The notes: generated by a model not told the origin, from the sequence alone. 64,000 nt of DNA from Actinomycetes bacterium (GCA_021791195.1 JAJYXB010000017.1:13422-77421); one strand, 5' to 3'. Counted from the stretch's first letter, positions 25,166-53,601 are shown. Numbers and translations are program-made.

Positions 25166-25168
25166 CCG

Positions 25169-25807: not shown

Positions 25808-25873
25808 GTTTCCGAAACCGATGATCAGATCGCCTTTGGCGGCGGCCGGCAGACCGGCAGGTTGCCAACCCTT

Positions 25874-30569: not shown

Positions 30570-30935
30570 GTGGACAAGAAGCACCGTCTCACCAGGTCGG
30601 CGGATTTCCAGCGGGTCTACCGCCAGGGGAAATCCGTGGCCGGCCGGCACATGGTCCTATATTACTTTGAAAGGCCCACGGAGAGTCCGGCTGATCCCCG
30701 GCTGGGGCTCACGGTATCGAAGAAGATCGGCGTGGCCGTGGTGCGCAACCGTGTCAAGCGGGTGCTGAAAGAGGCCTTCCATCAGTTTCAGGAAGATGTC
30801 GCGCCGGGCTACGATTATGTAATTATTGCCCGTTCCGGGCTGGCGGAGTATGTAGAAAAAAGCCAGTTTGAAGCCATCGTGACCGCGATGGCGGACCTGT
30901 TCCGGCGGGCTGACCTAATCCAGGAAGCAGAATAA
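30570..30935 (+). CDS. rnpA: ribonuclease P protein component
   Basis: ...HRLTRSADFQRVYRQGK...NRVKRVLKEAF... RnpA signature. GTG start. Follows rpmH. Confidence 0.9.
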   Translation: MDKKHRLTRSADFQRVYRQGKSVAGRHMVLYYFERPTESPADPRLGLTVSKKIGVAVVRNRVKRVLKEAFHQFQEDVAPGYDYVIIARSGLAEYVEKSQFEAIVTAMADLFRRADLIQEAE

Positions 30936-30936
30936 C

Positions 30937-31158
30937 TTGAAGCGAATACCAATCTTGCTGATCGGCTTTTATCAGAAGCTGATTTCACCGCTGTTTCCCC
31001 AACGTTGCAAATATCATCCCTCCTGCTCGAACTATGCAATCGATGCTTTCAGGGAATGGGGTTTTTTCCGCGGCCTGGCGCTGTCAGTGTGGCGCGTCTT
31101 GCGCTGCAATCCCTTCTCGCTGGGCGGCTTTGACCCGGTCAGGAAGAGGCAGCCGTGA
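30937..31158 (+). CDS. yidD: membrane protein insertion efficiency factor YidD
   Basis: CKYHPSCSNYAIDA...RCNPFSLGGFDPV. Confidence 0.85.
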   Translation: MKRIPILLIGFYQKLISPLFPQRCKYHPSCSNYAIDAFREWGFFRGLALSVWRVLRCNPFSLGGFDPVRKRQP

Positions 31159-31883
31159 CCGACGCTCTTGCTTTCCTGATCAATCCGCTTCGGCAGATAC
31201 TTTTCTTCCTGCATAACAACCTCGGCCTGTCGTATGCGCTGGGGATCATCGTCATGACCATCGCGCTGAGGCTCATCCTCACGCCCCTGACCATCAAGCA
31301 ATATACGGCGATGCGGGCGATGCAGAAGATCCAGCCGCTGATGAAAGAGCTGCAGGCGAAGTTCAAGGACGACCGGCAAAAGCTGAACGAAGAGACGATG
31401 AAGCTTTACCGGGAGCACAAGGTAAATCCTTTCGGCTCCTGCCTGCCGATGCTGATCCAGCTGCCGATCACCATGGCGCTCTATTACATGATCCGCAGCC
31501 AGCCTTTCACCACCGACAACTCATTCCTCTGGATCAGCAACATCAACGACCCTGACAGGATCCTGCTGGTCTTCTATGTGCTCAGCCAGCTGGGCTCCAG
31601 CCTGATGCTCACCACCACCACCGACAAGTCCCAGCGCATGCTGATGCTGATCATGCCAGTGGCCATCGGTTTCCTGGTGATTGGATTCCCGGCCGGGGCG
31701 CTGCTGTTCTGGGTGACGTCCAATCTGCTGATGCTGGGCCAGCAGCTGATCGTGCGGGAAGTAATCAAGGGCAGGGAGGCTCGTGAAGAGCTGGCGATTG
31801 AGCCGGCTCCTGAGCCACCTCAGCCAAAGACCGGAGGCAAGCCGCATGCAGGAAAACCAAAATCAAAAAAGAAACGCCGCTGA
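31155..31883 (+). CDS. yidC: membrane protein insertase YidC (short Gram-positive type)
   Basis: 242 aa, 5 TM helices, ...LTPLTIKQY...MQKIQPLMKELQAKFKDD... YidC/Oxa1 core. Lys-rich tail. Confidence 0.85.
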   Translation: MTDALAFLINPLRQILFFLHNNLGLSYALGIIVMTIALRLILTPLTIKQYTAMRAMQKIQPLMKELQAKFKDDRQKLNEETMKLYREHKVNPFGSCLPMLIQLPITMALYYMIRSQPFTTDNSFLWISNINDPDRILLVFYVLSQLGSSLMLTTTTDKSQRMLMLIMPVAIGFLVIGFPAGALLFWVTSNLLMLGQQLIVREVIKGREAREELAIEPAPEPPQPKTGGKPHAGKPKSKKKRR

Positions 31884-32628
31884 GGCCAAGGTAATCGGCA
31901 GCGGCAAGACGGTCGTGGAAGCCCAGGCTGACGCGCTGGCGAAGCTGGAGGCGGTGGCTGGACCCTTCCGCAAGGACGAAGTCGAGCTGATCGTCCTCTC
32001 AGAGGGTTCGAAAGGCTTTTTGGGGATGGGTTCCGCCATGGCGGAGGTCGAGGCGTCCCTGCCTGGCCCCGAAGCGAGCCAGCCGGAACCGGAGTTCTTC
32101 GACGAGGTCCTGGCCGACGAGCCTCAGCCTTTCATGACCGAGCGGGCGGAGAAGGAAGAGGATTTTCAGCCGGCCGGCGCGGAGGCCGAAGCCCGGCTGG
32201 AGGAATTCCTGCGGCAGATTCTGGAAGGGATCGGCCTGGAGGCCAGCGTGGTGGTGGCGGATGAGTACGAGGCGCTGGTGGGCAACATCACCGGGGAAGA
32301 CCTCGGGCTGCTCATCGGCCGTCACGGCCAGACCATAGATGCCATCCAGTATCTGGCCAACATCGCCGTGTTCCGGGGAACTCCCGATCGCAAGCGGGTA
32401 GTTGTCGACGCCGAAGACTACCGCGAACGCCGCGCCGAGGTACTGAAATCCCTGGCCGAACGGGGCGCCAGCGAGGTTTTGAGCGGCAAGCCGCAATATG
32501 AACTGAAACCGATGAGCGCCGCCGAGCGGAGGGTCATCCACATGTATCTGCAGGACCGCAAAGGCATCGATACCATCAGCGAGGGCAGCGACCCATTCCG
32601 CCGGGTGATCATCACCCGCTCAGCGTAA
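31846..32628 (+). CDS. jag: Jag/KhpB-like RNA-binding protein (KH + R3H domains)
   Basis: C-terminal R3H motif ...SAAERRVIHMYLQ...DTISEGSDPFRRVII. Position after yidC. Confidence 0.7.
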   Translation: MQENQNQKRNAAEAKVIGSGKTVVEAQADALAKLEAVAGPFRKDEVELIVLSEGSKGFLGMGSAMAEVEASLPGPEASQPEPEFFDEVLADEPQPFMTERAEKEEDFQPAGAEAEARLEEFLRQILEGIGLEASVVVADEYEALVGNITGEDLGLLIGRHGQTIDAIQYLANIAVFRGTPDRKRVVVDAEDYRERRAEVLKSLAERGASEVLSGKPQYELKPMSAAERRVIHMYLQDRKGIDTISEGSDPFRRVIITRSA

Positions 32629-37696: not shown

Positions 37697-38806
37697 TTGA
37701 AAGCCGTGATCCTTGTGGGCGGTCAGGGCACCCGGCTGCGGCCGCTTACTCTCGGCACCCCCAAGCCGATGGTGCCGCTGGCAAACATGCCTTTCGTCTC
37801 ATACGTGCTCGAACACCTGAAGAAGAACGGCATCGAGGAGATAGTCTTTTCGATGGGATACCTGCCTGACGGCATCAAGTCCTATTTCGGCGACGGCTCC
37901 GCCTTCGGCGTCAAGGTCACGTATGTCGTCGAGGACAGGCCGCTGGGCACCGCGGGAGCGGTCAAGAACGTCGCCGAGCATATCAGCGACCATGATTTCA
38001 TGGTTCTCAACGGCGACATTCTCACCGATCTGGATCTGCGGGCGCTGATCGACTTCCATCAGAAAAAAGAAGCGATGGGCACTATCGCCCTGACGCCGGT
38101 ACAGGACCCGACCGCCTACGGGCTGGTGCGCACCGGTCCCGCCGGAGAGGTGCTTGGCTTTCTGGAAAAACCCAGCTGGGACCAGATTGACACCAACCTG
38201 ATCAACGCCGGCATCTATGTGCTGAAGAATGAAGTGCTGGACATGATCCCCGCCGGCATCGAGTATTCGTTCGAGCGGGGCGTCTTCCCGCGGCTGGTCG
38301 GCAAGGGCCTTTTCGGTTTCGGCAGCGAATGCTACTGGATGGACATCGGTACGCCGGAAAAGTATCTGCAGGCACACTATGACATCCTGGAAAAGAACGT
38401 CACTACCAGCGTTTCCGCCTGCCTGGACAAGGATTTTGTCTGCGTCCAGGGCAAGATCGAACTGCACAACGGCGCCAAGCTGGTTCCGCCGGTGATGATC
38501 GGCGAGGGCACGAGGATCGAAGCCGGCGCCCGCATCGGCAGGATGGCGGTGATCGGTCCGGGCTGCGTCATCTCCGCCGGTTCGGTCGTCGAGGAATCGG
38601 TCATCCAGGAGGGCAGCACGCTCGAGGAAAACGTGGTCGTGCGGCGCAGCATCATCGCCCGTGGCGCGCAGATCGGTCGCGACACGGTCGTGACCGCGGG
38701 CGCCATCGTGGGCGAGGAAGCGAAAGTCGGCGGGGAGAACATCCTGGCCAATAACATCCGGGTATATCCCCGGACAGTGATCCAGGAAGGCACGATCAAG
38801 TTCTAG
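37697..38806 (+). CDS. NDP-sugar pyrophosphorylase with C-terminal left-handed beta-helix (mannose-1-phosphate guanylyltransferase-like)
   Basis: AVILVGGQGTRLRPLT motif, TTG start, C-terminal hexapeptide repeats. 369 aa. Confidence 0.7.
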   Translation: MKAVILVGGQGTRLRPLTLGTPKPMVPLANMPFVSYVLEHLKKNGIEEIVFSMGYLPDGIKSYFGDGSAFGVKVTYVVEDRPLGTAGAVKNVAEHISDHDFMVLNGDILTDLDLRALIDFHQKKEAMGTIALTPVQDPTAYGLVRTGPAGEVLGFLEKPSWDQIDTNLINAGIYVLKNEVLDMIPAGIEYSFERGVFPRLVGKGLFGFGSECYWMDIGTPEKYLQAHYDILEKNVTTSVSACLDKDFVCVQGKIELHNGAKLVPPVMIGEGTRIEAGARIGRMAVIGPGCVISAGSVVEESVIQEGSTLEENVVVRRSIIARGAQIGRDTVVTAGAIVGEEAKVGGENILANNIRVYPRTVIQEGTIKF

Positions 38807-38822: not shown

Positions 38823-40106
38823 TCAGCTGTGGCCGATGCCTTCGTAGGTGAAGCCGGCGGCGCGGATCTCCTCCGCATTAAGGAAATTGCGGCCGTCGAT
38901 GATCAGGTGATGGCGCATCCGCTTCTTCATCTCCGCCAGCGGCAGGTGCGCGAACTCCTCCCACTCCGTGACCAGCACAGCGGCATCGCAGTTCTCCACG
39001 GCCGTGAGCACATCATCGCACAGCAGCACTCCGCGCACGCTTCTGGCCGCATCCGGGATCGCCACCGGGTCGTATGCCTTGACGTAGGCGCCGTCACCCA
39101 GCAGCCGGGAGGCGAGCACAATCGAGGACGCCTCTCGCAGATCGTTGGTATTGGGCTTGAAGGCCAGCCCCAGCAACGCAACCGTCTTGTCGTTGAGCGG
39201 TCCGAGGTGCTTCTTCAGCTTGTTGACAACACGGCGCTTTTGTAACTCATTGACCTCGATCACGGCCGTCAGCAGCTGGAAGTGATAGCCGGAGTTGCCG
39301 GCAATCTGCTTCAGCGCCGCGACATCCTTGGGAAAGCAGGAGCCTCCGTAACCGATGCCGGCCTGCAGGAAATGCTTGCCGATCCGGGCATCGTAACCCA
39401 TGCCTTCGGCGACGACGGTAACGTCGGCGCCGATCTCCTCGCAGACGTTGGCAATCTCGTTGATGAAAGAGATCTTCGTTGCCAGAAAGGCATTGGATGC
39501 GTACTTGATCATCTCGGCGGTGGCGATGTTGGTCTTCAGGATGGGAGCTTTCATCCTGGTGTACAGCGCCGCTACTCTCTCACTGGCTTCCGGTTCCCGC
39601 GAGCCGATGACGACCCGGTCCGGATTGAGGAAATCGCCGATCGCCGAACCCTCTCGCAGGAATTCCGGGTTCGAGACGTAAGCGATGTTATCCATTTTCT
39701 GGCGGGCCAGCTCGCTGCTGATCTTGAGGCCGGTGCCTACAGGCACGGTGCTCTTCATTACCAGAATATGTTGTCCGGAGGAGAGTCCCGGCAGCGCTGA
39801 GATTACGGCGAAGACACGGCTTAAGTCGGCATCTCCGGTGAAGGAGGGCGGCGTGTCGACCGCAATGAACACGATCTCGCATTTCTCGAAGATCTCGTCG
39901 AGCGAGGTGGTGAAATGCATGCGCTCCCGGTTCTTTACCACCAGCTCGGGCAGCCCCGGTTCGAAGATGGGGACCTTGCCCTCACGCAGCGAAGCGATCT
40001 TTTCCGCGTCGATGTCCATGCAGACGACGTCATTGCCCAGCTCGGCCAGGCAGGTGGCCGTCACCAGGCCCACGTAACCGATGCCGATAATGCCGACGCT
40101 GCTCAT
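38823..40106 (-). CDS. ugd: UDP-glucose/GDP-mannose 6-dehydrogenase
   Basis: VGIIGIGYVGLVTATCLA NAD-binding motif, catalytic GGSCFPKD. 427 aa. Confidence 0.85.
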   Translation of the reverse strand: MSSVGIIGIGYVGLVTATCLAELGNDVVCMDIDAEKIASLREGKVPIFEPGLPELVVKNRERMHFTTSLDEIFEKCEIVFIAVDTPPSFTGDADLSRVFAVISALPGLSSGQHILVMKSTVPVGTGLKISSELARQKMDNIAYVSNPEFLREGSAIGDFLNPDRVVIGSREPEASERVAALYTRMKAPILKTNIATAEMIKYASNAFLATKISFINEIANVCEEIGADVTVVAEGMGYDARIGKHFLQAGIGYGGSCFPKDVAALKQIAGNSGYHFQLLTAVIEVNELQKRRVVNKLKKHLGPLNDKTVALLGLAFKPNTNDLREASSIVLASRLLGDGAYVKAYDPVAIPDAARSVRGVLLCDDVLTAVENCDAAVLVTEWEEFAHLPLAEMKKRMRHHLIIDGRNFLNAEEIRAAGFTYEGIGHS

Positions 40107-40176: not shown

Positions 40177-41925
40177 TCATAGCGGCTTGAAGGATGTGGC
40201 CAGCTGCACCATGGTCTCCTCGCTGAGCGAGTTCTGCAGCGAGTTGCTGATCCAGAGGGCCACGTTGCCGTTCTGCCAGGCGAGATACCTGAGCTGTCCG
40301 TCCACGTAAAAGAACCGGTACATCTTTCCCTGGATTTCTTTTTCCACGCTGGGCGCCTGCAGGAGCGGCGCATCCGTGAAAGTTGTCTCCATTATTCCCC
40401 AATAGTCCCCCGACTGGTCTTTGCCGACCACTTTGAGCGCCGGCCTGGAGCCGTCATCGGTCGAAATGTTGTAAGAGTAAAATCCGCCACCGGCGTATGA
40501 GAATTCCCTGGGAAAATCGGTCGGCTTCTCGATCCTGAACGGGACCTTGAGCGAAATTGACTGCCACGCGAACTTTCCGGTAATGGAATCCTGCTGGAAA
40601 TGCAGCGCCGGCGACATCTCTGGCTGCCTCTGCGTCAGATCACCGCCGAAGTTGTTGCCAACGATCACCAGCAGCTGGCTCTTTGTCGCCAGGCCTTCGG
40701 GCAGTGGTTCCACCTTGCAGGGCTTCAGCAGCGTGGACAGTTCGTTGGCCGCCGGCCGGAACCCTTCAGTGTAGTATACCTCGTTATCGGAGTAGCTGTT
40801 ATGCGTGTCGCCGGCAACGGAGATGGTGGTGAAACCTTTCCGCTTGAGCATGCCGGCCGCCAGACTGGCGGCGCCGGCCTTGCTGCCGCCGTTCATCACC
40901 GCCACCGAAACCTTCCTGGTATTGTCGGAAGGCACCGTACGCGCCGGCGCTCCCGGAACCGCCGGATCCGGCTGGTCGAACCGCGGGGATTCGAAATCCT
41001 TCATCACCCGGGCCAGGCCGGTCGCATCCAGCAGCACCTGGTTGCCGCTCTCGTAAATAGGGGCCTGGACCTGATAGATGTGTTCCTTGTTGAGCTCGAC
41101 CAGGAATTTTGAGAGCGAAATGATCCCGCCGCGGTCGATGTCGGAAGTGGTGTTGCTGGCGAAGACATCCGCCAGCTCCGGCAGCTTGGTGACGTTGCCC
41201 CACTGCATCGACTGCGCCTTGGCATCCCGGAGGAAATACTGCTGCCGCCTGATCCGCATGAAGTCGCTGTCAGTGTGGCGGAACCTGACGTAGTGCAGCG
41301 CATCTTGCCCGTTCAGCCGCTGGTAACCGGGCATGACGTCGATGGGGTCGTAGCCTTCCCCGGGGGCGGCGTCGCTGTTGTCGTTGTAATAGCGGTGATC
41401 CACATCCACGTAAATGCCGCCAAGGGCATCGACCGCTTTGGAGAACCCGTCAAAGTCCATGACGACAAAATGGTGGATCGGCTCGCCGGTCAGCTTGCGT
41501 ACGGTTTCGATGGCCAGCGGTACGCCGCCGTATGAATAGGCGGCGTTGATCTTGTCACTGCCGTGGCCGGGGATCTGCACGATCAGGTCGCGGGGGATGG
41601 ACAGCACCGACAGGGTGTTGCCCTGGGGGTCGACGCGCACCAGCATGAGGGTGTCGGAGCGGTGAGAGCTGCTGTCGGGGTCTTTATCGGCTCCCATCAC
41701 CAGGATGTTTTCCGGCTGGTCGGGCGGAGGGATGTCGAGCGAGGTCTTCGCCCCTTCGATGACCTGCGTGTTCTGCCCCACTTTCCCCAGCGTGTGGTAA
41801 ACGAAGAAGAATCCTGCCAGACCCGCGGTGAAAACGACGACCAGGAGCGCAACCACGGACCACTTGATGACTCGTTTCCACAGCGCTGGTTTTCTGTAAT
41901 GACGCCCGCGGTTGAACGGTCTCAT
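40177..41925 (-). CDS. LytR-CpsA-Psr (LCP) family cell-envelope glycopolymer transferase
   Basis: N-terminal TM. LCP core ...LVRVDPQGNTLSVLSIPRDL...INAAYSYGG. Long C-terminal extension. Confidence 0.8.
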   Translation of the reverse strand: MRPFNRGRHYRKPALWKRVIKWSVVALLVVVFTAGLAGFFFVYHTLGKVGQNTQVIEGAKTSLDIPPPDQPENILVMGADKDPDSSSHRSDTLMLVRVDPQGNTLSVLSIPRDLIVQIPGHGSDKINAAYSYGGVPLAIETVRKLTGEPIHHFVVMDFDGFSKAVDALGGIYVDVDHRYYNDNSDAAPGEGYDPIDVMPGYQRLNGQDALHYVRFRHTDSDFMRIRRQQYFLRDAKAQSMQWGNVTKLPELADVFASNTTSDIDRGGIISLSKFLVELNKEHIYQVQAPIYESGNQVLLDATGLARVMKDFESPRFDQPDPAVPGAPARTVPSDNTRKVSVAVMNGGSKAGAASLAAGMLKRKGFTTISVAGDTHNSYSDNEVYYTEGFRPAANELSTLLKPCKVEPLPEGLATKSQLLVIVGNNFGGDLTQRQPEMSPALHFQQDSITGKFAWQSISLKVPFRIEKPTDFPREFSYAGGGFYSYNISTDDGSRPALKVVGKDQSGDYWGIMETTFTDAPLLQAPSVEKEIQGKMYRFFYVDGQLRYLAWQNGNVALWISNSLQNSLSEETMVQLATSFKPL

Positions 41926-41994
41926 GGGCCCTCCGCAAATTCCCCCGATAAAAAAATTGCCTCCCCCGGAGGCTGGGACATTATATGCTTCCTG

Positions 41995-43047
41995 CTATTT
42001 TCCGGCAACCGGCTGGCGGCCGGAACGGCCCTCGCTGACATTTCGATAGATCTGTTCGTAGCCGTCGGCCGCTTTGGCGACGCTGAATGTATCCTGGACA
42101 TAGCGGCGGCATGCCTCCGGATCGATCTCGTCCAGCCGGCCCAGCTTCTCGACCATCTCATCAACATTGTCCACCACGAAGCCGGTGACTCCGTCGGCGA
42201 CAACCTCAGGCACCGATCCCTCGGGGAAGGCCAGCACCGGCGTGCCGGCGGCCATCGCTTCGATCATCACCAGTCCGAACGGCTCCGGCCACTGGATCGG
42301 GAACAGGAACGCCCTGGCATTGGCAAACAGGTTCCATTTCTCCGACAGCGACACCTCGCCCACGAACCTGATCTGCTCGCCATCGACTTCCGGTTTGATC
42401 ACCGTCTCGAAATAGTCCCGGGAGACCTGTTGCACGGCTCCGGCGATGACCAGATTGCTGCCGGTGCGTTTGGCTACCTCAATGGCGGTGTGAAACCCCT
42501 TGTCAGCACAGATCCGTCCAAAAGCCAGCAGGAAATCATCCTTCTGTTCCCGTCCGCGGAAAGTCCAGTTGGCGATATCGATCGGGTTATAGACCGTGCC
42601 GGCATAATTGAGGTCGGGACAGCAGCTGCGCTGGTATTTACTGATGGCGACGTAGTGCGCGGAGGTGCGAGAATTGCGGTAAAAGGAGCAGATGTCGTTG
42701 TTGAAAGGCCCATGCAGCGTATGCACCACGGGCGTGTCGATGAACTCGGCGACGGCCGCGGCGATGAAGCCGGAGTGGTCCTGGATAACATCGAAGTCGC
42801 CGGCCTGCCGGAAGCAGCTGATGACCTGCTGGACATCGTACATCGTCTGTCCGATGCGGTCGGGCATCTCGCGGGGGAAGGCCGCCACCAGCCTGGCCCT
42901 GGTGACAGAATCGCCGGTGGCAAACAGGGTCACGTCATGTCCGCGCTCAACCAGCTCGTCGGTAATGTAATGCACCACCCATTCGATGCCGCCGTAGCCC
43001 GCGGGCGGAATCTTGATCCAGGGCGGCGCCAGCATGCCTATCTTCAC
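41995..43047 (-). CDS. GT4 family glycosyltransferase
   Basis: MKIGMLAPPWIKIPPAGYGGIEWVV N-terminus. C-terminal ...EPFGLVMIEAMAAGTPV EX7E motif. Confidence 0.75.
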   Translation of the reverse strand: MKIGMLAPPWIKIPPAGYGGIEWVVHYITDELVERGHDVTLFATGDSVTRARLVAAFPREMPDRIGQTMYDVQQVISCFRQAGDFDVIQDHSGFIAAAVAEFIDTPVVHTLHGPFNNDICSFYRNSRTSAHYVAISKYQRSCCPDLNYAGTVYNPIDIANWTFRGREQKDDFLLAFGRICADKGFHTAIEVAKRTGSNLVIAGAVQQVSRDYFETVIKPEVDGEQIRFVGEVSLSEKWNLFANARAFLFPIQWPEPFGLVMIEAMAAGTPVLAFPEGSVPEVVADGVTGFVVDNVDEMVEKLGRLDEIDPEACRRYVQDTFSVAKAADGYEQIYRNVSEGRSGRQPVAGK

Positions 43048-43089: not shown

Positions 43090-44136
43090 TTAATTACCCC
43101 GGGAGGGCATTTCTGAATCTGTTTCGGACAGGGCCCTGCCAACCTCTGTGCGCAGGAACCCGATGATCTGGTTCGCAGTTTCGCCGCTGACTGAGGCGCC
43201 GGCCGCCTGTGCATGGCCGCCGCCGCCTTTCAGCCTGGCGATCCGCTGGACGTTCACCTTCGCGGAAGAGGAGCGGAGGCTGAGGCGGTAAAACGGCTCG
43301 CCTTCGTTCTCATGGTTGGTGCGCGCGTAGACCAGGCATGCCACCATCACTCCGTCGATCGCCCGCAGGTTGTCTACCAGCCCCTCGGTGGACTCATTGC
43401 TGGTGCCGGTCTGGTCGAAATCGGCCTGCTCCAGCACCGCTACCGCCAGCCGGCCGTCCAGCGCCAGGGTCAGATGTTCGAACATGCGGCAGAAGAGTCT
43501 GGTCTTGCTCAGTGGCACGCGTTCGTACACCGCGCGGAAGATGGCGGTATGGTCCACCCCTCGTCCGATCAGGTCCGCCGCTACCCGGAAGGTGGCCGGG
43601 GAAGCCGACGAATACTGGAAACGGCCGCTGTCCACGAGGATGCCCGTGTAAAGCGCCTCCGCGATCTCGGGCGTGATCTCGGCACCGAGCCGTTCGAGGA
43701 TGAAATACAGGATCTCGGCGGTGGAGCTGGCGCCGTCGACCACGAGGTTGATCTCGCCGAAACGTGTGTTATCGGCGTGATGGTCGATGTTGATTATTCG
43801 TCGCGCCTCCGCAACCAGTTGGTCGTTGCCGACGCGCTCGGCGTTGCCGCAGTCGACGCACACCAGGGTGCGTGTTCCGGAATCCGCCGGCGGATCGCCG
43901 CGCACGACCTCTGCCAGGCCTTTGAGAAAGTGCCATTCGGGTGCTACCGGCTCAGTGGAAGAAATGTACATCACGGAATCGGCGCCCAGCTGGGTCATTG
44001 AACGGTGCAGGGCAATCAGGCAGCCAATGGCATCGCCGTCCGGGTTGACGTGGCAGGTGATAAGCACTCTGGGTTCCCGCTTCAGGGCCTCGGCAACGGC
44101 CTTCAGGGCCTGATCGATGGATTGGGAAGCGGTCAC
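43090..44136 (-). CDS. nrnA: DHH/DHHA1 phosphoesterase NrnA-like (oligoribonuclease / pAp phosphatase)
   Basis: CHVNPDGDAIG, INIDHHADN and GGGHAQAAG motifs. Confidence 0.75.
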   Translation of the reverse strand: MTASQSIDQALKAVAEALKREPRVLITCHVNPDGDAIGCLIALHRSMTQLGADSVMYISSTEPVAPEWHFLKGLAEVVRGDPPADSGTRTLVCVDCGNAERVGNDQLVAEARRIINIDHHADNTRFGEINLVVDGASSTAEILYFILERLGAEITPEIAEALYTGILVDSGRFQYSSASPATFRVAADLIGRGVDHTAIFRAVYERVPLSKTRLFCRMFEHLTLALDGRLAVAVLEQADFDQTGTSNESTEGLVDNLRAIDGVMVACLVYARTNHENEGEPFYRLSLRSSSAKVNVQRIARLKGGGGHAQAAGASVSGETANQIIGFLRTEVGRALSETDSEMPSRGN

Positions 44137-44158: not shown

Positions 44159-45600
44159 CTAATTGCCAGCCTCGCCATGATTGCGGGCCGGTTTGAGCGG
44201 ATTTACCGACTTGAGCGGCTCAAGATAATTGCGGCCGTCCGCGAATTCCCGGGCTGATTTGAGGATGCGCCGCAGGTGGCTGAAGGTCAGCCGGCGGGTG
44301 GCCAGTCCCTTGATCAGCGGCACGGCCCGCTGCACCAGGACGCCGGAATTTACATATGCCGTGCGGTAGAGGCTGGCGAATTCCTTGTAGAACTCGGCCG
44401 GATCCAGCTTGGTTGGCACTACCGAGTGGAGAAAGTCGTACAGCTCGTAATTCCTGGTGACGATCTTGCCTTCGATCTCCCTGAAGAGGTCGGTGCCCGG
44501 CAGCGGCGTCAGCACGGTGAACTGGGGGACGTTGACGCCGTGGCTGGTAACGTAGTTGCGCAGCCGCTCGAACTCCTGGTGGCCGTAATCCGGGTTGATG
44601 ATGAAGGCGCCCGTGACCGATACGTCCTGTCCCCGGATGATCTTCAGCGCTGCGTCATTGGTGGCGACGCTGTTCTTCTTGTTCACCGCCTTGAGCTCTT
44701 CCTCGTCCAGGCTTTCAAAACCGATGAAAACGTGCGAAAGGCCGACCTTGTGCCATTTGGCGATGATCTCGGGATGCTTGACGATGGTATCGCTGCGCGC
44801 CTGAAAAGAATAGTGCTTCTTGATGCCGCGCGCCATGAGCAGATCGGCGATCGCATCCGCGCGCTTGACGCTCATCAGGAAATTGTCATCGGTGATCAGG
44901 ACAAACTTCTCTTTCAGCCGCGCCAGCTCCTCGACCACCCGTTCGGGGCTCTTGGTGCGGCAGCGTCCCTCGAAGAAGGCCCAGACGCTGCAGAAATTGC
45001 AGCGGTGCGGGCAGCCGCGGGCGGTCTCGATGGTCGCCAGCGGCTTCCAGAAATTGAAGAAGTAGCGCCGCCGCCGTCTCTTCGGCACGAGGTCCCGGGC
45101 AGGAAACGGCAAATCATCCATGTTGTCAACAGGCTTGCGCGCTCCGGTGGAGATCTGGCCATCCGCGGTGTTGAGCATCAGTCCCGGGACGCTGTTGAGG
45201 TCGCCGCCGTCCCGCAAAGTGTTGATCAGTTCAGGGGCGCCGAATTCGCCTTCGCCGATGACGATGGCGTCGATCGCCTCACCGCTGAAGTCAGAAGGAT
45301 TGAGTGAGGCATGCAGCCCGCCGATGAACACGAACGGGGCGCCATTGTCCTTGGCGACCTGCGCGATTTTCTGCGTGCGGAAGACATCGATGGTGAATGA
45401 GCAGCTGATGCCGACAGCATCGGGGCGGAAATCAGCCAGCGCCGGTTCCAGGTCGCCGTCGACACGCATGTCATGGATGCGCACCTCATGGTCCGGGACG
45501 AGCGCGCCAGCGACCATCTCCAGTCCGAGCGGCTCGACCAGGGCTACCTTGGTAAAGCCGGGCTTGCCAAACTGCGGTGGTTGTACCAGAAGAACTTTCA
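44159..45600 (-). CDS. B12-binding-domain radical SAM protein
   Basis: N-terminal Rossmann-like cobalamin-binding domain (MKVLLVQPP...AVGISCSF...FIGGLHAS). Radical SAM motif ARGCPHRCNFCSVW. ~480 aa. Confidence 0.75.
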
Positions 45601-45694
45601 TAGGTAAAAATTTCCCGATTTCAATGAAAAGCATCCTATTAGATTGGGTCAAAAAGTGCAATGCGGCGCTACCTGGCCGCATGGGCTCCGAACG

Positions 45695-46744
45695 TCATGC
45701 TTTCCGGGATATTTGGAACTCGGCCGCGGTTCCTTCCTCATGCTGGATGAAGAACCTGATCGCCAGCAGCAACAACAGATCGAAAATGAAGCCGGGCAGG
45801 GCGTCGAACCCCTCGCTAATGAACAGGAAGAACTGGCTGATGAAGATGGAGATCAGCATCGAGCGCTCGAACATCCTGAAAGCGGCCAGGCGCGAGCGCC
45901 GGATCAGTATCAGCCCCCAGAAAACAAAGATGCTGGCGATGAGATTGGAACCCAGGATGGCCCATTCAGCGAACGAAAGTACGTCTATCTTCGCCGCGAT
46001 CGAGCCACCTCCGAACATCAGCGCCAGCATCGTCGCCGCGGCGCTTGCCGCCTGGATGACGAAAAAAGCGACGATCACGTTGTTGAACCAGCGCCGGCTT
46101 GCCAGTGTCCGGTAACGGCGGTGCCAGTAGCCTTTCCAGCGCTCGTACGCAGCCGCCGGCCTGGCTTCGGGCACGGCGCCGGCCCGGTCGATTATCTCGA
46201 GCAGGCTGGCTGTGAGCCAGTCCTGGCTTGCCTGATCCAGGGCGGCAAGCACGCGTTCGCGCGTATCTTCCCGGAAGCTGCCCGCCGGGATGTCCCGCAT
46301 CTCGTTGATGGCGTTACTCAGGACCTCGATGCGCGTGAAATTCCAGGCGGTGAGGATGTAGCGTGCCGCCAGGAAGATGGCCACGAAGGTGACGTACATG
46401 ATCGCCACCGCCGGCTGAAAGAAGTAATTGTTATCCCGGGTAACAAACTTCCCCACTTCGTCGATGAAGAGGCCGAAGCCGGCGCCGCCCGCAAGCGCCG
46501 CCAGCTCCTCGGCGCCCCGGTTAAGGAAGAGGATCAGGACCAGGATCGCCGCCGCCATCAGCAGCCCGCCCCAGAGCACGTGGGCGACGTGGATGGACGA
46601 GCCGCCGCCGAGCCTGGGGAAGCCGGTCAGCTCCAGAAACAGCCGCACCCCCAGGATGGTGACGATGGCGGAGATGAAAAAATATTCGGTGCCCCGCATG
46701 GCGCGGGAATCGCGGATCGGGTGTATTTGCAAATTTGCCGCCAT
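45695..46744 (-). CDS. hypothetical polytopic membrane protein
   Basis: 349 aa from internal ATG (MAANLQIHP). ~8 TM helices with a central soluble loop. No family recognised. Confidence 0.45.
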   Translation of the reverse strand: MAANLQIHPIRDSRAMRGTEYFFISAIVTILGVRLFLELTGFPRLGGGSSIHVAHVLWGGLLMAAAILVLILFLNRGAEELAALAGGAGFGLFIDEVGKFVTRDNNYFFQPAVAIMYVTFVAIFLAARYILTAWNFTRIEVLSNAINEMRDIPAGSFREDTRERVLAALDQASQDWLTASLLEIIDRAGAVPEARPAAAYERWKGYWHRRYRTLASRRWFNNVIVAFFVIQAASAAATMLALMFGGGSIAAKIDVLSFAEWAILGSNLIASIFVFWGLILIRRSRLAAFRMFERSMLISIFISQFFLFISEGFDALPGFIFDLLLLLAIRFFIQHEEGTAAEFQISRKA

Positions 46745-46865
46745 CACGAAGAGCCTCCCTTCCAAATTTGTCGGTCCGGGCGACGGACGGCCGGGAACGC
46801 GGCGGACTTGCACAGGGCCCTGTTACCTTTGCCAGGCGGAATCGAAACGCGAGGATGCCCGAGGG

Positions 46866-47282
46866 CTACCGGCTGCCGGTAGCGGCGGTGGTCGCGGCGG
46901 GCGCAGTCTGCGCCGGCGGAGCCGCCTGCCTGACCCAGATTCCGCCGGAAGGATCGGTGATCTTGCCGTCACCTATCTTGCCGGTGACCGGCGGCTTCTG
47001 GAACTCGGCGTAAGCGGTCAGCGTCAGTGTGCCGCCGGAGACAGCGAATTTGCCGGTCGTATCAAGGCCGGGCTCTTTGAGATGATAGGTGCCGTCGGCC
47101 TTGAGCTCGATGAAGCTGCCGCCGCTCCTGGAACTGCTGTAGTAGCCGGCGTAGTCGGCCGGATTGGCCTGGTTGGTGCCGCCCGAGCCGCAGCCGGCCG
47201 CAGCCGCCAGCAGGCCGGCGATGAGGCCGAAACCAGCCAGAGGCAGGATTATCCTATGCAGATTTCTCAGGTCGGGCATCAT
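46866..47282 (-). CDS. putative lipoprotein
   Basis: Signal peptide ending in lipobox LAAAAGC. Gly/Thr-rich mature region. Confidence 0.45.
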   Translation of the reverse strand: MMPDLRNLHRIILPLAGFGLIAGLLAAAAGCGSGGTNQANPADYAGYYSSSRSGGSFIELKADGTYHLKEPGLDTTGKFAVSGGTLTLTAYAEFQKPPVTGKIGDGKITDPSGGIWVRQAAPPAQTAPAATTAATGSR

Positions 47283-47317
47283 TTTGCACCATTTCTTAAG
47301 CACCGGCGACGGGGGGA

Positions 47318-47394
47318 TGGCGCCCCGAGAAGGATTCGAACCTTCGACCTACCGCTTAGGAGGCGGTCGCTCTCATCCTCTGAGCTATCGGGGC
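47318..47394 (-). tRNA. tRNA-Arg (anticodon CCT)
   Basis: Reverse complement folds as GCCCCGA-TAGCTCAGAGGAT...ACCGC-CTCCTAA-GCGGT...GGTTCGAATCC...TCGGGGC-G-CCA with encoded CCA. Anticodon loop CT-CCT-AA. Confidence 0.85.
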
Positions 47395-47461: not shown

Positions 47462-48397
47462 TCAGCTCTCAAGCGCGCAGAGCAGGATCTCTTCCACCAT
47501 GTCATTGAAACTCAGGCCCGCAGCCTGAGCCGCCATCGGCATCAGGCTGGTCTCGGTGAAACCGGGGATGGTGTTGATCTCCAGACACCAGAGCCCGCCC
47601 GCATCGTCGAGGATCAGATCGACGCGGCCGAAGCCGGAGCAGTTCAGCGCGTTGAATGCCTTCAGCGAGATCTCGACGGCGCGTGCGGCGACGTCCTCCG
47701 GGATCTCCGCCGGCACGACGTAATCGGCTTTCCCCATCGTGTAACGCGATTCGAAGTCGAAGAACTCTGTCTTGGGGATCGCCTCGACGATCGGCAGCGC
47801 CCGCGGTTCCCGGCCGATGATGCTGACCGCCAGCTCCCGTCCCTTGACGTATTTCTCCAGCAGCACCTTGTCGTCGAAACTGAAGGCGGAGATCAGCGCC
47901 GCCGGCATCTCCTCGACGCTGTGGGCGAAGCGCACGCCCAGCGCGGAGCCCTGGCCGGCGGGCTTGACGACGATCGGCAGGTCGAGCTCCCCGGTGATGA
48001 TCGGCAGGGTGTCCACGGCGCCCAGCTCCTGGAAGGCGTCACGGCTGAAGGCGTAGAAATCCGGCGTCGGAATGCCGTCCGCCACAAAGATGTGTTTTGA
48101 CAGCACTTTGTCCATGCACCGCAGCGAAGGCAGAACGTTCGAGCCGGTGTAGGGGATGCCAAGGATCTCCAGCAGCTCCTGCACCGTGCCGTCCTCGCCG
48201 CTCTTGCCGTGCATGGCGATGAACGCCGCGTCCGGTTTCATCTCTTTCAGCCGCCTGACCATGCGTACATCGACGTCGATGCTCTCGACCGTGTGGCCGA
48301 GCTCTTCCAGAGCCTTCTCCACCCGCGCTCCCGACTTCAGCGAGATGTTGCGCTCGAGCGAACGCCCTCCTTTGAGAACCGCCACTTTCTTGCTCAT
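47462..48397 (-). CDS. D-alanine--D-alanine ligase family ATP-grasp enzyme (second Ddl paralog)
   Basis: MSKKVAVLKGGRSLERNISLKSG...HGKSGEDGTVQELLEILGIPYTGS...EINTIPGFT. 311 aa. Confidence 0.8.
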   Translation of the reverse strand: MSKKVAVLKGGRSLERNISLKSGARVEKALEELGHTVESIDVDVRMVRRLKEMKPDAAFIAMHGKSGEDGTVQELLEILGIPYTGSNVLPSLRCMDKVLSKHIFVADGIPTPDFYAFSRDAFQELGAVDTLPIITGELDLPIVVKPAGQGSALGVRFAHSVEEMPAALISAFSFDDKVLLEKYVKGRELAVSIIGREPRALPIVEAIPKTEFFDFESRYTMGKADYVVPAEIPEDVAARAVEISLKAFNALNCSGFGRVDLILDDAGGLWCLEINTIPGFTETSLMPMAAQAAGLSFNDMVEEILLCALES

Positions 48398-48469: not shown

Positions 48470-49717
48470 TCAGCTGCCCCGCAAGGCCTGGTACAGATCC
48501 ATCTGCTCGCGGATCACCTTGGCCAGCCGCTTGATGCCTTCTGCGATCATGGCCTCGGGGACGCCACAGAACGCCAGCCGCATATGGTTGGCGCCGCTGC
48601 CGTCCTCCCAGCCGCCGGCGCCGGGAACGAAGGCGACTTTTTCCTGTTCCAGCGCCAGCGCCAGCAGATCGGTGGCGTCAAGATATTCCGGCAGCGTCGC
48701 CCAGATGTAGAAGCCGCCGCGGGGCCGCGTCCAGGTCGCCTCTGGCGGAAAATGCTCTTCGAGCGCCGCCTGCATGGCGTCGCGCCGGCGCCTGTATACT
48801 TCGATCACCGTCTCGACGTAGTCGCGCCAGTGAGCCTCGCGGAAATATTCGTTGACGATCATCTGCGCCAGCGTGGACGGACACAGGTCCGCCGCCTGCT
48901 TCCCCAGGTTGAACTTGGCCAGCAGCGGTGCCGGCGCGGCGATCCATCCCAAACGGATGCCCGGCGAGAGGATCTTGGAAAAAGTGCCCACGTAGATGAC
49001 GTTGTTGTCGCTGTCGAGCGAGTAGAGCGTCGGCTGCGGCTCGCCCTCGAAGCGCAGCAGGCCGTAGGGGTTGTCCTCGACGATGATCAGCTGATGCTCC
49101 CGCGCCAGCTCCACCAGCTCGTGCCGCCGCGCCAGACTCAGCGAGACGCCGGCCGGATTGTGGAAATTCGGGATGACGTAGATGAACTTCGGCTTGCGCC
49201 CCCGCTTTAGCTCTGCCTCGATCACCTGGCGCAGCAGGTCTATGCGGATGCCGTCGTCGTCCAGCGGCACCTGGGTCACCTCGGCCTGGAAGCTGGAGAA
49301 TGACGGGATGGCGCCGGGGTAGGTGGGCGCTTCGGCGATGATCAGGTCGCCGGGATCGATGAGCACCCGCGTCACCAGATCGATCGCCTGCTGCCCGCCG
49401 GTGGTGACGATGAGGTTCTCGATATCGACATGGGCGCCCTCCGCGGCCATCACTTCGGCGATATTGCGCCTGGTCTGGTCGAAGCCTTCCGTGGGGCCGT
49501 ATTGCAACGCCGCCGCCGAGGACTTCATCGCCACCTCGTGCGTCACCTTTGCCAGGGTTTTTGCGGGGAAGCTCTCGGTGCTGGGCAGGCCGCCGGCCAG
49601 ACTGATGACATCGGGGCGCGCTATCACCGCCATCAGGTCGCGCATCACCGATGAGCGCATGTTGCCGGTGCGCTTCGCATAAAAAACTTCATACTTGTCA
49701 AGATCGATTTTCGTCAT
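48470..49717 (-). CDS. PLP-dependent aminotransferase, class I/II (LysN/AadAT-like)
   Basis: Fold type I aminotransferase motifs (...YVGTFSKILSPGIRLGW...). Start taken at internal ATG MTKIDL. Confidence 0.7.
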   Translation of the reverse strand: MTKIDLDKYEVFYAKRTGNMRSSVMRDLMAVIARPDVISLAGGLPSTESFPAKTLAKVTHEVAMKSSAAALQYGPTEGFDQTRRNIAEVMAAEGAHVDIENLIVTTGGQQAIDLVTRVLIDPGDLIIAEAPTYPGAIPSFSSFQAEVTQVPLDDDGIRIDLLRQVIEAELKRGRKPKFIYVIPNFHNPAGVSLSLARRHELVELAREHQLIIVEDNPYGLLRFEGEPQPTLYSLDSDNNVIYVGTFSKILSPGIRLGWIAAPAPLLAKFNLGKQAADLCPSTLAQMIVNEYFREAHWRDYVETVIEVYRRRRDAMQAALEEHFPPEATWTRPRGGFYIWATLPEYLDATDLLALALEQEKVAFVPGAGGWEDGSGANHMRLAFCGVPEAMIAEGIKRLAKVIREQMDLYQALRGS

Positions 49718-49816
49718 AAACCCAGATTCTAGTCTGGCCCGTTTCTTTAAGCAATAACGCGGGAATGGTACAATGCGGGCTTGTCCGGAATGAGTCAAGC
49801 TAATCAGGAGGTTCTG

Positions 49817-50824: not shown

Positions 50825-51658
50825 TCATCCGCGGTGCCGGTGGTCATGTTTTTCCACGTGGCTGTGCGGATGCGAGTGCTCGAGGCCGTCATGGCGGTGG
50901 GTGTGATAGTGCACCAGGTTGGCGCTGAGCAGCAGCTCCCGATCGGCCAGCACCTCCGCGGCCGGTCCCTCGCCGGCGAGCCGGTGATCTTCTCCCAGGA
51001 CTATCGCCCTGCTGGCGATGTGGGTGACGATGCCCAGGTCCTGGGTGGCGGTGATTATGGTCTTGCCGGCGCGGTTGAGCTCTGCCATCATCTGGATCAG
51101 GAATTCCTCCGTCTTGGGATCGAGACCCGCGGTGGGCTCGTCGAACAGCAGCACATCCGGGTTGATAGCCAGCACCGCGGCCAGCGCCACCTTCTTTTTC
51201 TCGCCGCCACTCAGGTGATATGGCGGCCGGTCGCGCAGATGTTCGAGACCCAGGATATGCAGCGTGTCCTTGACGCGTTCTTCGACCTCATCCTGGGGCA
51301 AACCCAGATGCAGCGGTCCGAAAGCAATCTCCTCCCAGACGTTGGGCGAGAACAGCTGTGCATCGGAGTTCTGGAACACGAAGCCGACACGGCGGCGGAA
51401 ACCCCGGGCGAAACCCTCGTCCTGAAGCGCGGTTTCGTCCAGCCTGCTGCCGAAGGCCCTGATCTGACCCCCGCTGGGGAAGATGAGTCCATCCAGCAGC
51501 TTGAGCAGCGTCGATTTGCCGGAGCCGTTCGCGCCCAGCAGGGCTAACTTCTCCCCGGCGTCCACCCTGAAGCCGATGCCGTCCAGGCCCGTGGCGTCCA
51601 TATAACTGTAACGGACAGCCTCGAGCTCGAATACCGGATGTGGGCCGCGCTCAGCCAA
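50825..51658 (-). CDS. cbiO: ECF-type ABC transporter ATP-binding protein (CbiO/NikO-like)
   Basis: Walker A GANGSGKST, LSGGEKKKVALA signature, Walker B LLFDEP. Probable TTG start overlapping the cbiQ stop. Confidence 0.8.
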   Translation of the reverse strand: MAERGPHPVFELEAVRYSYMDATGLDGIGFRVDAGEKLALLGANGSGKSTLLKLLDGLIFPSGGQIRAFGSRLDETALQDEGFARGFRRRVGFVFQNSDAQLFSPNVWEEIAFGPLHLGLPQDEVEERVKDTLHILGLEHLRDRPPYHLSGGEKKKVALAAVLAINPDVLLFDEPTAGLDPKTEEFLIQMMAELNRAGKTIITATQDLGIVTHIASRAIVLGEDHRLAGEGPAAEVLADRELLLSANLVHYHTHRHDGLEHSHPHSHVEKHDHRHRG

Positions 51659-52601
51659 GCAGGCGGTCGCCTCCCACAGCCGCAATCGCCAGCAGCAACG
51701 CCGCAACCAGCAGCAGCAGGTCTTGAGTGCGCATGCGAAAGGGCCTCATGGTCATCGGCTCGCCGTTGAAGCCGCGGCTGACCATGGCCGCGTAGATCTC
51801 GTCGCTGAGCGTGCTGGACTTGCCCAGCAGCGTCCCCATGCTGCTGGCGGCGAAGTGCCGGTCGTCACGGGGGCTGCCGGGGCCGACCATGCGGCTGCGT
51901 CTGGCTGTGAACATGTCGCTTGCCAGGCTGAGGAGCAGGAAGATATACCGGTACGCCATCGACAGGATCAGCACAAAGACACGCGGCACGTAAAAGATCC
52001 GCAGCGCCTTGAGCAGGTCGGACCAGCGCGTCGTCAGCGTCAGCAGTACCGCCAGCGACACCGACACCGCCACTCGGAGGATGAGGATGGCGGCGCCAGC
52101 GAGCCCCTGCCTGGTGATCGCCAGCGAGGTGCCAAGCGACCACGGGCCCAGACGCACCTCGTGGCCGAAACTCCAGATAGTGAACAGCGGGTCACCTGCT
52201 TTGACTACATTAAATATACTGGGTAAAACAATCACGCCGGCGAAGACGGGGATGAACAGCCAGACGCGCTTGATGAAAAATCTAAGCGACACCCGCGAAG
52301 AAGCGGCTGCCGCCAGAGTGAGCGCATAGAGGGTCAGCAGCAGGAGGGGTGTCCGGATGATCGCCGCCGCCATCAGCAGCGCCAGCAGCCCGGCGCTCTT
52401 GGCCCGCGGATCGGTGCGCTGCAGCAATCCCTGCCGCGCCGCAATCTGCTCGGAGAAGACGCTGGTCCTGAGCGCGTGCGCCATCCCCTGGATCGTCCGT
52501 TCCACCGCGCTGCGCCGGCGCCTGCGGCCGCTGGTGGCTGGAGCTTTCGCGCCGGCAGCGGCGATCATCCACCGTGGCAGTGTCGGCTCAGTTTCAATCA
52601 C
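51651..52601 (-). CDS. cbiQ: ECF transporter transmembrane T component (CbiQ/NikQ-like)
   Basis: Polytopic membrane protein between M and O components. Start possibly at internal ATG. Confidence 0.6.
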   Translation of the reverse strand: MIETEPTLPRWMIAAAGAKAPATSGRRRRRSAVERTIQGMAHALRTSVFSEQIAARQGLLQRTDPRAKSAGLLALLMAAAIIRTPLLLLTLYALTLAAAASSRVSLRFFIKRVWLFIPVFAGVIVLPSIFNVVKAGDPLFTIWSFGHEVRLGPWSLGTSLAITRQGLAGAAILILRVAVSVSLAVLLTLTTRWSDLLKALRIFYVPRVFVLILSMAYRYIFLLLSLASDMFTARRSRMVGPGSPRDDRHFAASSMGTLLGKSSTLSDEIYAAMVSRGFNGEPMTMRPFRMRTQDLLLLVAALLLAIAAVGGDRLLG

Positions 52602-53601
52602 TTTTTTTTGTCCTGTGTATCAACTTGACCGCGAGAAAAGTCAGGCCGCCGACTATGGCCAGGCCGATCGCGGCGGAGGCCATATACCCGGGCACCGAGG
52701 ACCAGAAGCTGCCCCGCACGCCGTAATGCGGCAGTATTCCACTCCAGAAGCCCGAAAACCTGTTCATCCCTTCGGGGATGAAGCCGAAACGCCGGCGGAT
52801 ATCCTCGGGGCTCCACTCGCCCCAGGCCGTCGCCGTGGCCAGCAGACCCAGCGGCACGAAGATGAGCATCAGCAGCAACCCGATCAGCAGCGGCCGCAGC
52901 CGTGGGCCGGCTGCTGGCGCGGCGGCTTTCTCACCCGCCAGCAGGCCGATGCGCGCCCGCTGCAGGTAAACGACGGCCAGGGCGGTCACCCCCGCTTCCA
53001 CGAAGCCGATCACCGTCAGGTGCACCAGCATCATCGCCGGGATCGTCTGCGAAAGGCCGTAAGGCGAGTACAGCGCCGTACCGTTGGCGGTGTGGAAGAG
53101 GCCGGGCTGGATGCCAACCTCGAGCGCGACCAGGAAAGCGGAAACGTTGAGGCCGACATATGCGCCGATGCCGGCGCCGATCCAGCGGCGCGCTCCCCGG
53201 GGGGAGGAGCCGGCTGAAATCAGTCGGTATACATAATAGCCGACGATTGGCAGGATGAATGCCATGTTGAAGCAGTTGGCGCCGATGGCGAGGATGCCGC
53301 CGTCACCAAAGAAGAGCGCCTGGATCACCAGCGCCACCGTCAGCGCGATCACCGCCGCCCACGGTCCCAGCGTTACCGCCACCAGCGTGCCGCCCACCGC
53401 GTGCGCTGAGGTTCCACCAGGCACGGGGATGTTGAACATCATGATGACGAACGTGAACGCCGCCCCGATAGCCACCAGCGGCGCCTGCCGCTGCCTGAGC
53501 GTCCGCTTGACCTTGTGGCCGGCGGTGTACCAGACGGGCACCATCATCGCCCACAGGCCGCCCGCGGTCTGCGGGCTGATGTAGCCATCGGGTATGTGCA
53601 T
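52594..53601 (-). CDS. cbiM: fused CbiM/CbiN (NikMN-type) substrate-capture component of Ni/Co ECF transporter
   Basis: Starts MHIPDGY, the Met1-His2 metal-coordinating N-terminus diagnostic of CbiM/NikM. C-terminal extension with an extra TM (CbiN-like). 335 aa. Confidence 0.8.
   Translation of the reverse strand: MHIPDGYISPQTAGGLWAMMVPVWYTAGHKVKRTLRQRQAPLVAIGAAFTFVIMMFNIPVPGGTSAHAVGGTLVAVTLGPWAAVIALTVALVIQALFFGDGGILAIGANCFNMAFILPIVGYYVYRLISAGSSPRGARRWIGAGIGAYVGLNVSAFLVALEVGIQPGLFHTANGTALYSPYGLSQTIPAMMLVHLTVIGFVEAGVTALAVVYLQRARIGLLAGEKAAAPAAGPRLRPLLIGLLLMLIFVPLGLLATATAWGEWSPEDIRRRFGFIPEGMNRFSGFWSGILPHYGVRGSFWSSVPGYMASAAIGLAIVGGLTFLAVKLIHRTKKSD

Follow-up and report, generated by a model that had tools for sequence, protein, structure and literature searches.

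Among the closest described systems are Gmm, GrsA/GrsB (archaeal tetraether lipids) and bacterial Mss/Tes, class-B (cobalamin-binding) or radical S-adenosylmethionine (SAM) enzymes that modify unactivated carbons of lipids (PMC13459092), and HpnR, whose profiles and KEGG Orthology (KO) term also catch many uncharacterised proteins that are not HpnR (bioRxiv 10.1101/2025.07.29.667474). Here we examine a gene for a B12-binding radical SAM enzyme on a 64,000-nucleotide (nt) stretch of DNA from an Actinomycetes bacterium (JAJYXB010000017.1:13422-77421), the whole of which we call the window, together with its two upstream neighbours, which encode a polytopic membrane protein and a small lipoprotein-like open reading frame (ORF). 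The original prediction had placed these three genes at the head of a cell-wall glycopolymer operon and had proposed that the enzyme and the membrane protein act together in a membrane-embedded modification of an envelope lipid or glycopolymer. On the basis of its domains, its fold, its sub-cut-off family scores and a neighbour-joining (NJ) tree, we conclude that the enzyme truly belongs to class B and that its clade, which is uncharacterised, neighbours HpnR; its surroundings show conserved gene order without conserved partnership.

Families were assigned to the window proteins by Pfam and NCBIfam profile scans. The enzyme had been recognized initially by the cluster motif CPHRCNFC and an N-terminal cobalamin domain, and profile hidden Markov models (HMMs) bear this out: PF02310 matches residues 49-151 of a 507-amino-acid (aa) form at 58.7 bits (cut-off 32.1), PF04055 matches at 71.3 bits (cut-off 29.5), and the cluster cysteines C197, C201 and C204 are invariant among 30 homologues. 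The 507-aa ORF is an upstream extension of a 480-aa form that begins MKVLLVQPP, as in homologues (P0001, 99%); no database record contains the exact 507-aa sequence, consistent with the 480-aa start. An AlphaFold2 (AF2) model (predicted local distance difference test [pLDDT] 86, predicted template modelling score 0.86) has a beta-alpha N-terminal domain, and a Foldseek search with it returned MgmA/QCMT (9ccb) at the top (E 2.7e-22), then AprD4, TsrM, OxsB, CysS and TokK. A sequence search of the PDB gave the same enzyme set, including TokK, OxsB and QCMT.

Curated families place the enzyme near HpnR and outside it. TIGR04367 (HpnR) matched best, with 299.7 bits where the trusted cut-off is 650, followed by BchE (TIGR02026; 155.6 bits, cut-off 481) and HpnJ (98.5 bits, cut-off 578); every other curated family scored below 93 bits. 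Models for class-B enzymes acting on ribosomally synthesized and post-translationally modified peptides fell far under HpnR (ApyD, 92.6 bits; rSAM_ocin_1, 73.7 bits), the ladderane-type lipid B12-radical SAM model TIGR04072 gave 73.5 bits, below its cut-off of 360, and PhpK, KedN5 and AprD4 each gave less than 75 bits. As a calibration reference we took the HpnR of a Kozakia baliensis plasmid annotated by the Prokaryotic Genome Annotation Pipeline (WP_070404292.1), which scores 899.2 bits on TIGR04367 and shares 32% identity with the window enzyme. Besides 22 members of the window family, the NJ tree took in this HpnR, two other plasmid proteins that are HpnR-like, one HpnJ and two BchE. All 100 bootstraps kept the window family monophyletic with HpnR outside it, and 88 of them joined the family to HpnR to the exclusion of BchE and HpnJ. 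A placement inside a characterised clade had been named as a result that would refute the prediction; with the HpnR, BchE and HpnJ cut-offs all unreached and the family separate in every bootstrap, this is not what we found. As judged from sequence, the enzyme belongs to no characterised family and its clade is near HpnR.

One useful outcome is a well-populated class-B clade, close to HpnR, to which no function is assigned. Several of its members carry the Joint Genome Institute label 'hopanoid C-3 methylase', and surveys of biomarker genes should allow for the capacity of HpnR profiles and KO terms to mislabel the clade in this way. Within the 64-kb window there are no hopanoid or other lipid-pathway genes, squalene-hopene cyclase included. 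Searches of the literature on HpnR-like clades, on mid-chain fatty-acid methylation by B12-dependent radical SAM enzymes and on branched lipids of Thermoleophilia found nothing relevant. PADLOC defence-system models gave only a generic match to the radical SAM core, at 38 bits, and Rfam (gathering threshold, and E<=1) reported tRNA only, with no cobalamin or other riboswitch near the enzyme. The family is basic (median isoelectric point [pI] 8.5) and the C-terminal tail of the window enzyme strongly so (pI 10.5), a property that is compatible with binding to membranes or polyanions and decides nothing.

Two observations concern the enzyme's wider surroundings. A CbiO/CbiQ/CbiM-type energy-coupling factor (ECF) transporter for cobalt (or nickel) is encoded at 50825-53601 on the minus strand, 5 kb upstream of the enzyme, and the same is seen in one relative (locus L087); its position near a B12-dependent enzyme may be coincidental synteny. 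The window also holds two smaller radical SAM ORFs, at 12529-13155 (208 aa) and 19259-20329 (356 aa).

The features of the region are as follows, in the order in which they are read on the minus strand.

48470-49798, minus strand: class I/II aminotransferase (Pfam/NCBIfam)
47462-48397, minus strand: Ddl (Pfam/NCBIfam)
47318-47394, minus strand: tRNA-Arg(CCT), between Ddl and the lipoprotein-like ORF
46866-47303, minus strand: small lipoprotein-like ORF, 145 aa, no family match
45695-46744, minus strand: polytopic membrane protein with about 8 transmembrane (TM) helices, 349 aa, of a large unnamed family (hydropathy and AF2)
45661-45682, minus strand: weak terminator-like hairpin and T-run directly past the membrane-protein stop (pattern scan)
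45631-45638, minus strand: invariant TAGGATGC, -10-like, candidate promoter or operator, 32 nt before the ATG of the radical SAM enzyme
44159-45601, minus strand: predicted class-B radical SAM enzyme (cobalamin and [4Fe-4S]), 480 aa (PF02310 and PF04055)
43090-44136, minus strand: NrnA-like DHH/DHHA1 phosphoesterase, 22 nt past the radical SAM gene (Pfam/NCBIfam)
41995-43047, minus strand: glycosyltransferase of family 4 (GT4; Pfam)
41959-42008, minus strand: TTGCCG-N17-TATAAT, promoter-like, in the spacer ahead of LCP, with hairpin GCCTCCGGGGGAGGC 6 nt beyond it and then a T7 run
40177-41925, minus strand: LytR-CpsA-Psr (LCP) glycopolymer transferase with a LytR_C domain (Pfam/NCBIfam)
38823-40106, minus strand: UDP-glucose 6-dehydrogenase family protein, Ugd (TIGR03026)
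37697-38806, plus strand: sugar-1-phosphate nucleotidyltransferase (ManC/GMPP-like), 369 aa, convergent with the end of Ugd

ORF calling thus gives nine co-directional minus-strand protein genes, from the aminotransferase through Ugd, with gaps of 121, 93, 22, 42, 69 and 70 nt from the lipoprotein-like ORF onward, so that the earlier description of nine minus-strand genes with short gaps was largely correct. It erred in setting a 'short' convergent sugar-pyrophosphorylase ORF between LCP and Ugd: that ORF is 369 aa long and lies beyond Ugd. The nearest database proteins carry the label 'Thermoleophilia bacterium' and come from metagenome-assembled genomes. Because rnpA and jag lie 12-14 kb from the genes in question, we probably have here a part of the core chromosome near the origin; these two genes (rnpA and jag/KhpB) are at 30570-32628, and G+C content drops to 0.55 at 30-32 kb.

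The adjacency of membrane protein and radical SAM enzyme is conserved, though only among close relatives. Three loci, L005 (bacterium BMS3Abin01), L086 and L087, share the order membrane protein, radical SAM enzyme, DHH protein, (GT4), LCP, Ugd and pyrophosphorylase, and the conserved block is larger than this, running from Ddl through these genes to an HNH gene and MgsA. Proteins of the block are 57-82% identical between these loci and the window, and the membrane protein only 38-48%. Since the whole Ddl-to-MgsA block is syntenic by shared ancestry, local adjacency within it carries little functional information. Nine pairs of radical SAM and membrane-protein matches agree in the length of their longest contig, which suggests that the members of each pair share a contig. 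Beyond the lineage the pairing is absent. A homologue of the membrane protein was examined at 80 genome loci, of which 71 were informative (at least 1.5 kb downstream); a radical SAM enzyme of this family was present in one, and that one is the same-lineage locus of BMS3Abin01. In the converse comparison, based on 29 loci with a radical SAM homologue at 39-53% identity, none of the 22 that were informative (at least 1.2 kb upstream) had the membrane protein upstream. Adjacency therefore does not recur in independent lineages, the sole positive being a close relative. Five loci from other Thermoleophilia/Solirubrobacterales (L044, L051, L054, L058 and L059) have the membrane protein without the enzyme, and clustering of all flanking ORFs found no recurrent neighbour of the membrane protein. 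With no recurrent partner for the membrane protein and an orphan lipoprotein beside it, the proposed membrane-embedded module is not borne out.

The more distant enzymes of the family have neighbours of their own, which are likewise limited to particular lineages: a radical SAM/SPASM protein in some loci, and a ketosynthase-like (KAS) ORF with a sensor kinase in another subgroup. The former association is a recurrent two-gene cassette in which a homologue 46-50% identical to the window enzyme stands beside a SPASM protein of 467-507 aa. It was seen at L081 (Desulfallas, 6597-9392), L082 (4430-7391), L089 and L175 (Chloroflexi, 6001-8963), its hosts being Desulfallas, Chloroflexota and unassigned metagenome contigs; at L082 a 176-aa membrane protein comes after the cassette.

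Comparison of the intergenic regions argues, in addition, that the genes are not one transcription unit. The spacer between membrane protein and radical SAM enzyme is divergent in the window and its three close relatives except for an invariant TAGGATGC, which lies 32-66 nt before the enzyme's start across the four loci. The actinobacterial -10 consensus is TAnnnT, and the TAGGAT within this motif resembles it, making the site a candidate promoter or regulator site for the enzyme; no Rfam family matches there. The leader of the LCP gene contains an invariant TATAAT in all four loci, with a -35-like hexamer at a distance of 17-18 nt in three of them, and 6-15 nt past the TATAAT there is a conserved AGCCTC...GAGGCT hairpin with a T-run, in which AGCCTC is likewise invariant and one pair shows a compensatory change (relatives: L086, 10238-10297; L087, 13628-13664; L005, 13700-13757). 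This leader is kept in L005, where GT4 is absent. It may serve as a stem-loop that stabilises the 5' end, as an attenuator or as the terminator for the unit before it. The conserved TAGGATGC and TATAAT-hairpin elements argue for at least three units, namely the membrane protein, radical SAM-DHH-(GT4) and LCP-Ugd, and these consensus matches suggest that the radical SAM enzyme and LCP are in separate ones. They argue against the single lipoprotein-headed glycopolymer operon of the original prediction. We also considered a terminator between the membrane protein and the enzyme. The hairpin and T-run at 45661-45682 fold no better than shuffled sequences (z = 0.59) and are not conserved in relatives, and we retain them as a weak feature on pattern only. 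A pattern scan of the region found 5 terminator-like sites, with 9.5 expected by chance.

The lipoprotein-like ORF appears to stand apart from its neighbours. It is annotated at 145 aa, and because a homologue (P0241) is 138 aa long its start is probably at 47282. The N-terminus resembles a signal peptide with LLAAAAGC and reads ...LIAGLLAAAAGC|GSGG, which, judged by eye, matches relaxed Gram-positive lipobox patterns; G+C content at third codon positions (GC3) is 0.79, consistent with coding. There is no Pfam or NCBIfam family match, only 3 homologues were found among 5.8 billion proteins, and tblastn found no match in the three relatives, two of which (L086 and L087) have a divergent P-type ATPase in the lipoprotein's place upstream of the membrane-protein gene. 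By these comparisons the gene is an orphan, outside any conserved module.

The membrane protein, by contrast with this orphan, belongs to a very large family. Its length is supported by an identical database protein (P0121, 100% identity over the 349-aa form), and hydropathy together with an AF2 model (pLDDT 80.7) gives about 8 TM helices and a soluble, helical insert of 85 aa (residues 135-217), in agreement with the uncharacterised 349-aa, 8-TM protein of the original prediction. It has no Pfam or NCBIfam match, Pfam at E<=1 on 32 diverse family members gave scattered single matches only, and we found no structural relative or known fold. A profile search of 1.84 billion representatives collected 2344 clusters at 50% identity, all of them single-domain proteins of about 330-410 aa. 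The family carries the invariant or nearly invariant motifs HxAHxLWGG and GFGxFIDEVGKFVTxDNxYFFQP. Matches in genomes come from Dadabacteria, Acidobacteriota, Gemmatimonadota, Chloroflexota, Thermodesulfobacteriota and Eisenbacteria; from Saccharibacteria, Paceibacterota and Levyibacteriota of the candidate phyla radiation (CPR); and, among archaea, from Woesearchaeota (DPANN) and Methanotrichaceae. This distribution argues that the membrane protein works independently of the class-B enzyme. A large and strongly conserved 8-TM family that spans bacteria and archaea without a Pfam entry or known fold is a useful product of the analysis in its own right, and, being catalogued in neither Pfam nor NCBIfam, it could well be defined as a family of its own.

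Of the genes downstream, the phosphoesterase had been called NrnA. Its DHH and DHHA1 domains are present (72.2 and 41 bits), but it scores 88.5 bits on the NrnA equivalog NF053633 against a cut-off of 350, and we therefore call it NrnA-like only. The DHH gene directly follows the radical SAM gene in the three close relatives and nowhere else among the loci examined; GT4 is present in L086 and L087. LCP (PF03816, 148 bits; TIGR00350, 132 bits against a cut-off of 62.3) and Ugd (TIGR03026, 437 bits against 189.8) are assigned with scores well over their cut-offs.

How the enzyme might work can be modelled on the class-B enzymes HpnR, TokK, MgmA and Gmm (review PMC13459092, sections 2.5 and 3.3). 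By this analogy it would use SAM twice: one molecule would methylate cob(I)alamin, and a second would be cleaved at the [4Fe-4S] cluster to give a 5'-deoxyadenosyl radical, which would abstract hydrogen from an unactivated carbon so that the substrate radical could take the methyl group from methylcobalamin. By the same analogy the enzyme is probably a C-methyltransferase. As to its substrate, lipids are hinted at by the kinship with HpnR, by a Clostridium plasmid on which an HpnR-like gene adjoins fatty-acid and acyl-carrier genes, and by a ketosynthase-like ORF, identified from sequence, near some relatives at about 43% identity; peptides or other targets are hinted at by the SPASM proteins that adjoin homologues in four loci. 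Its transcript would begin at the conserved -10-like motif and would include DHH and, where present, GT4, and LCP-Ugd would have its own promoter and leader hairpin.

The explanation that we favour, with somewhat better than even confidence, is that this is a syntenic, origin-proximal block, specific to an uncultured lineage with the NCBI label 'Thermoleophilia', in which three unrelated neighbours (the orphan lipoprotein, the widespread 8-TM protein and the class-B radical SAM enzyme) stand side by side and do not form one machine. Several points weigh against it. The short gaps and shared direction of the genes make read-through transcription possible, and the promoter and terminator calls are consensus matches whose window-wide counts are not above shuffled expectation. 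The adjacency persists although the membrane protein of BMS3Abin01 is only 38% identical, which leaves room for a functional link restricted to the lineage. The NJ tree covers a single validated HpnR, beside HpnR-like plasmid proteins, BchE and HpnJ. Finally, the class-B enzymes BchE, OxsB and GrsA/B carry out non-methylating chemistry, and methyl transfer is assigned here by analogy.

Set against this block of unrelated neighbours are readings that join some of the genes. The least improbable of them, though unlikely in our judgement, treats the membrane protein as irrelevant and takes the radical SAM enzyme, DHH and GT4 as a unit that would supply the wall glycopolymer with a sugar or phospho-sugar carrying, for example, a C-methyl group, much as GenK and Fom3 act on sugars and phosphonates. 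Between these three genes the gaps of 22 and 42 nt hold no promoter or terminator match, the radical SAM-DHH order is kept in all three relatives, and the unit would be framed by the conserved promoter-like motif just before the enzyme and the conserved hairpin and T-run after GT4; in BMS3Abin01, however, there is no GT4 and the hairpin stays with LCP. DHH/DHHA1 proteins of such size are usually housekeeping nanoRNases or pAp (3'-phosphoadenosine 5'-phosphate) phosphatases. None of the 29 more distant homologues of the enzyme has a DHH neighbour, the nearest approach of a GT4 among those loci is about 5 kb off on the opposite strand (L175), and the sugar-methylase families all score poorly. 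A reading that we rank below this one, and hold to be rather doubtful, is that the family modifies a peptide, protein or other core component, with a SPASM partner in other phyla and a stand-alone enzyme of the Thermoleophilia type. There is no SPASM partner in the 64-kb window and no evident precursor-peptide gene, and ApyD and rSAM_ocin_1 score far under HpnR; yet the SPASM protein of the L081, L082, L089 and L175 cassettes has its best PDB and NCBIfam matches to SkfB, SuiB (5v1q), NirJ and the mycofactocin maturase, which are of peptide or tetrapyrrole type (Tes is not among them), other homologues stand alone among housekeeping genes such as dnaX, nrdJ and clpX, and the family is basic.

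Lower again, and improbable in our view, we place the module of the original prediction, in which the 8-TM protein and the enzyme would form a membrane-embedded assembly that modifies (for example C-methylates) an envelope lipid or lipid-linked glycopolymer, its construction and attachment being left to GT4, LCP and Ugd. Outside the lineage the two genes are not paired (1 of 71 and 0 of 22 among the informative loci), the membrane family occurs in CPR and DPANN genomes without a recurrent partner, relatives can do without GT4 and the lipoprotein, and promoter-like motifs lie both between the two genes and before LCP. The adjacent, co-directional arrangement, seen in the window and in every close relative, including BMS3Abin01, speaks for the module but is little informative in a region that is syntenic throughout; also on its side are the envelope genes downstream, the basic C-terminal tail, which could bind anionic membranes, and the fact that HpnR, the nearest characterised relative, acts on a membrane lipid. 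The least probable of the readings considered, with perhaps a slim chance of being right, extends that last point to the clade as a whole: the HpnR-sister enzymes, widespread in anaerobic Bacillota, Chloroflexota and these actinobacteria, would be cobalamin-dependent methylases that attack unactivated carbons in lipids of the membrane or in carrier lipids, such as fatty-acyl or polyprenyl chains, and in this lineage one of them would have been recruited with the 8-TM protein for tailoring an envelope lipid or a lipid-linked wall polymer. If true, this lipid-methylase reading would give a first function to the radical SAM clade and to the 2344-cluster membrane family, and a real pairing would mean that a little-known lineage of actinobacteria assembles its envelope with a radical methylation that has yet to be described.

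A separate HpnR-like B12-radical SAM protein (207 bits on TIGR04367) is encoded on a plasmid of Clostridium sp. CF011 (L171, 5001-8890), in a cluster that also encodes FabD, an adenylate-forming enzyme, a phosphopantetheine-binding carrier protein and a thioesterase; it is possibly a class-B enzyme that modifies acyl chains. Elsewhere in the window, a TreT-type trehalose synthase adjoins an OtsA-type GT20 enzyme (20483-23242) and a GDP-mannose 4,6-dehydratase adjoins an epimerase/reductase (5905-7914), which represent further sugar-nucleotide and envelope capacity. Two long ORFs, at 24977-26668 (563 aa) and 1635-3071 (478 aa), have no Pfam match. Whether the latter is a true gene is doubtful, since its composition is unusual, with G+C of 0.85 at first codon positions and a GC3 of 0.64.

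Compared with known class-B enzymes, the window enzyme is in fold most like MgmA/QCMT (9ccb), TokK (7kdx/7kdy), TsrM, CysS and OxsB, with Foldseek E-values from 2.7e-22 to 1e-16, TM-scores of 0.62-0.73 and sequence matches down to E 4e-13. It differs from them in sequence, at 16-20% identity, and their substrates are diverse (protein glutamine, carbapenem, tryptophan and nucleoside). B12 plays no part in AprD4 although its fold is the same, so fold alone does not fix the chemistry. In the kind of role first proposed for it, the window enzyme would resemble Gmm, GrsA/GrsB and Mss/Tes. No Tes-like or SPASM radical SAM protein is present in the 64-kb window, where tblastn with the SPASM proteins of the distant homologues found nothing below E 0.15, and those SPASM partners themselves do not match the solved tetraether synthase. 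BchE, the second-best curated family, has the same domain order; it is 23-27% identical, branches outside the group formed by HpnR and the window family, and belongs to a photosynthesis context that the window does not have. HpnR is the nearest of all. The window enzyme is separated from it by an identity of 32%, a score less than half the trusted cut-off, a separate clade in every bootstrap and an HMM match that ends at position 423 of 490, beyond which the C-terminal region is unlike; with HpnR it nonetheless shares the same architecture, an N-terminal B12-binding domain followed by a CxxxCxxC radical SAM core.

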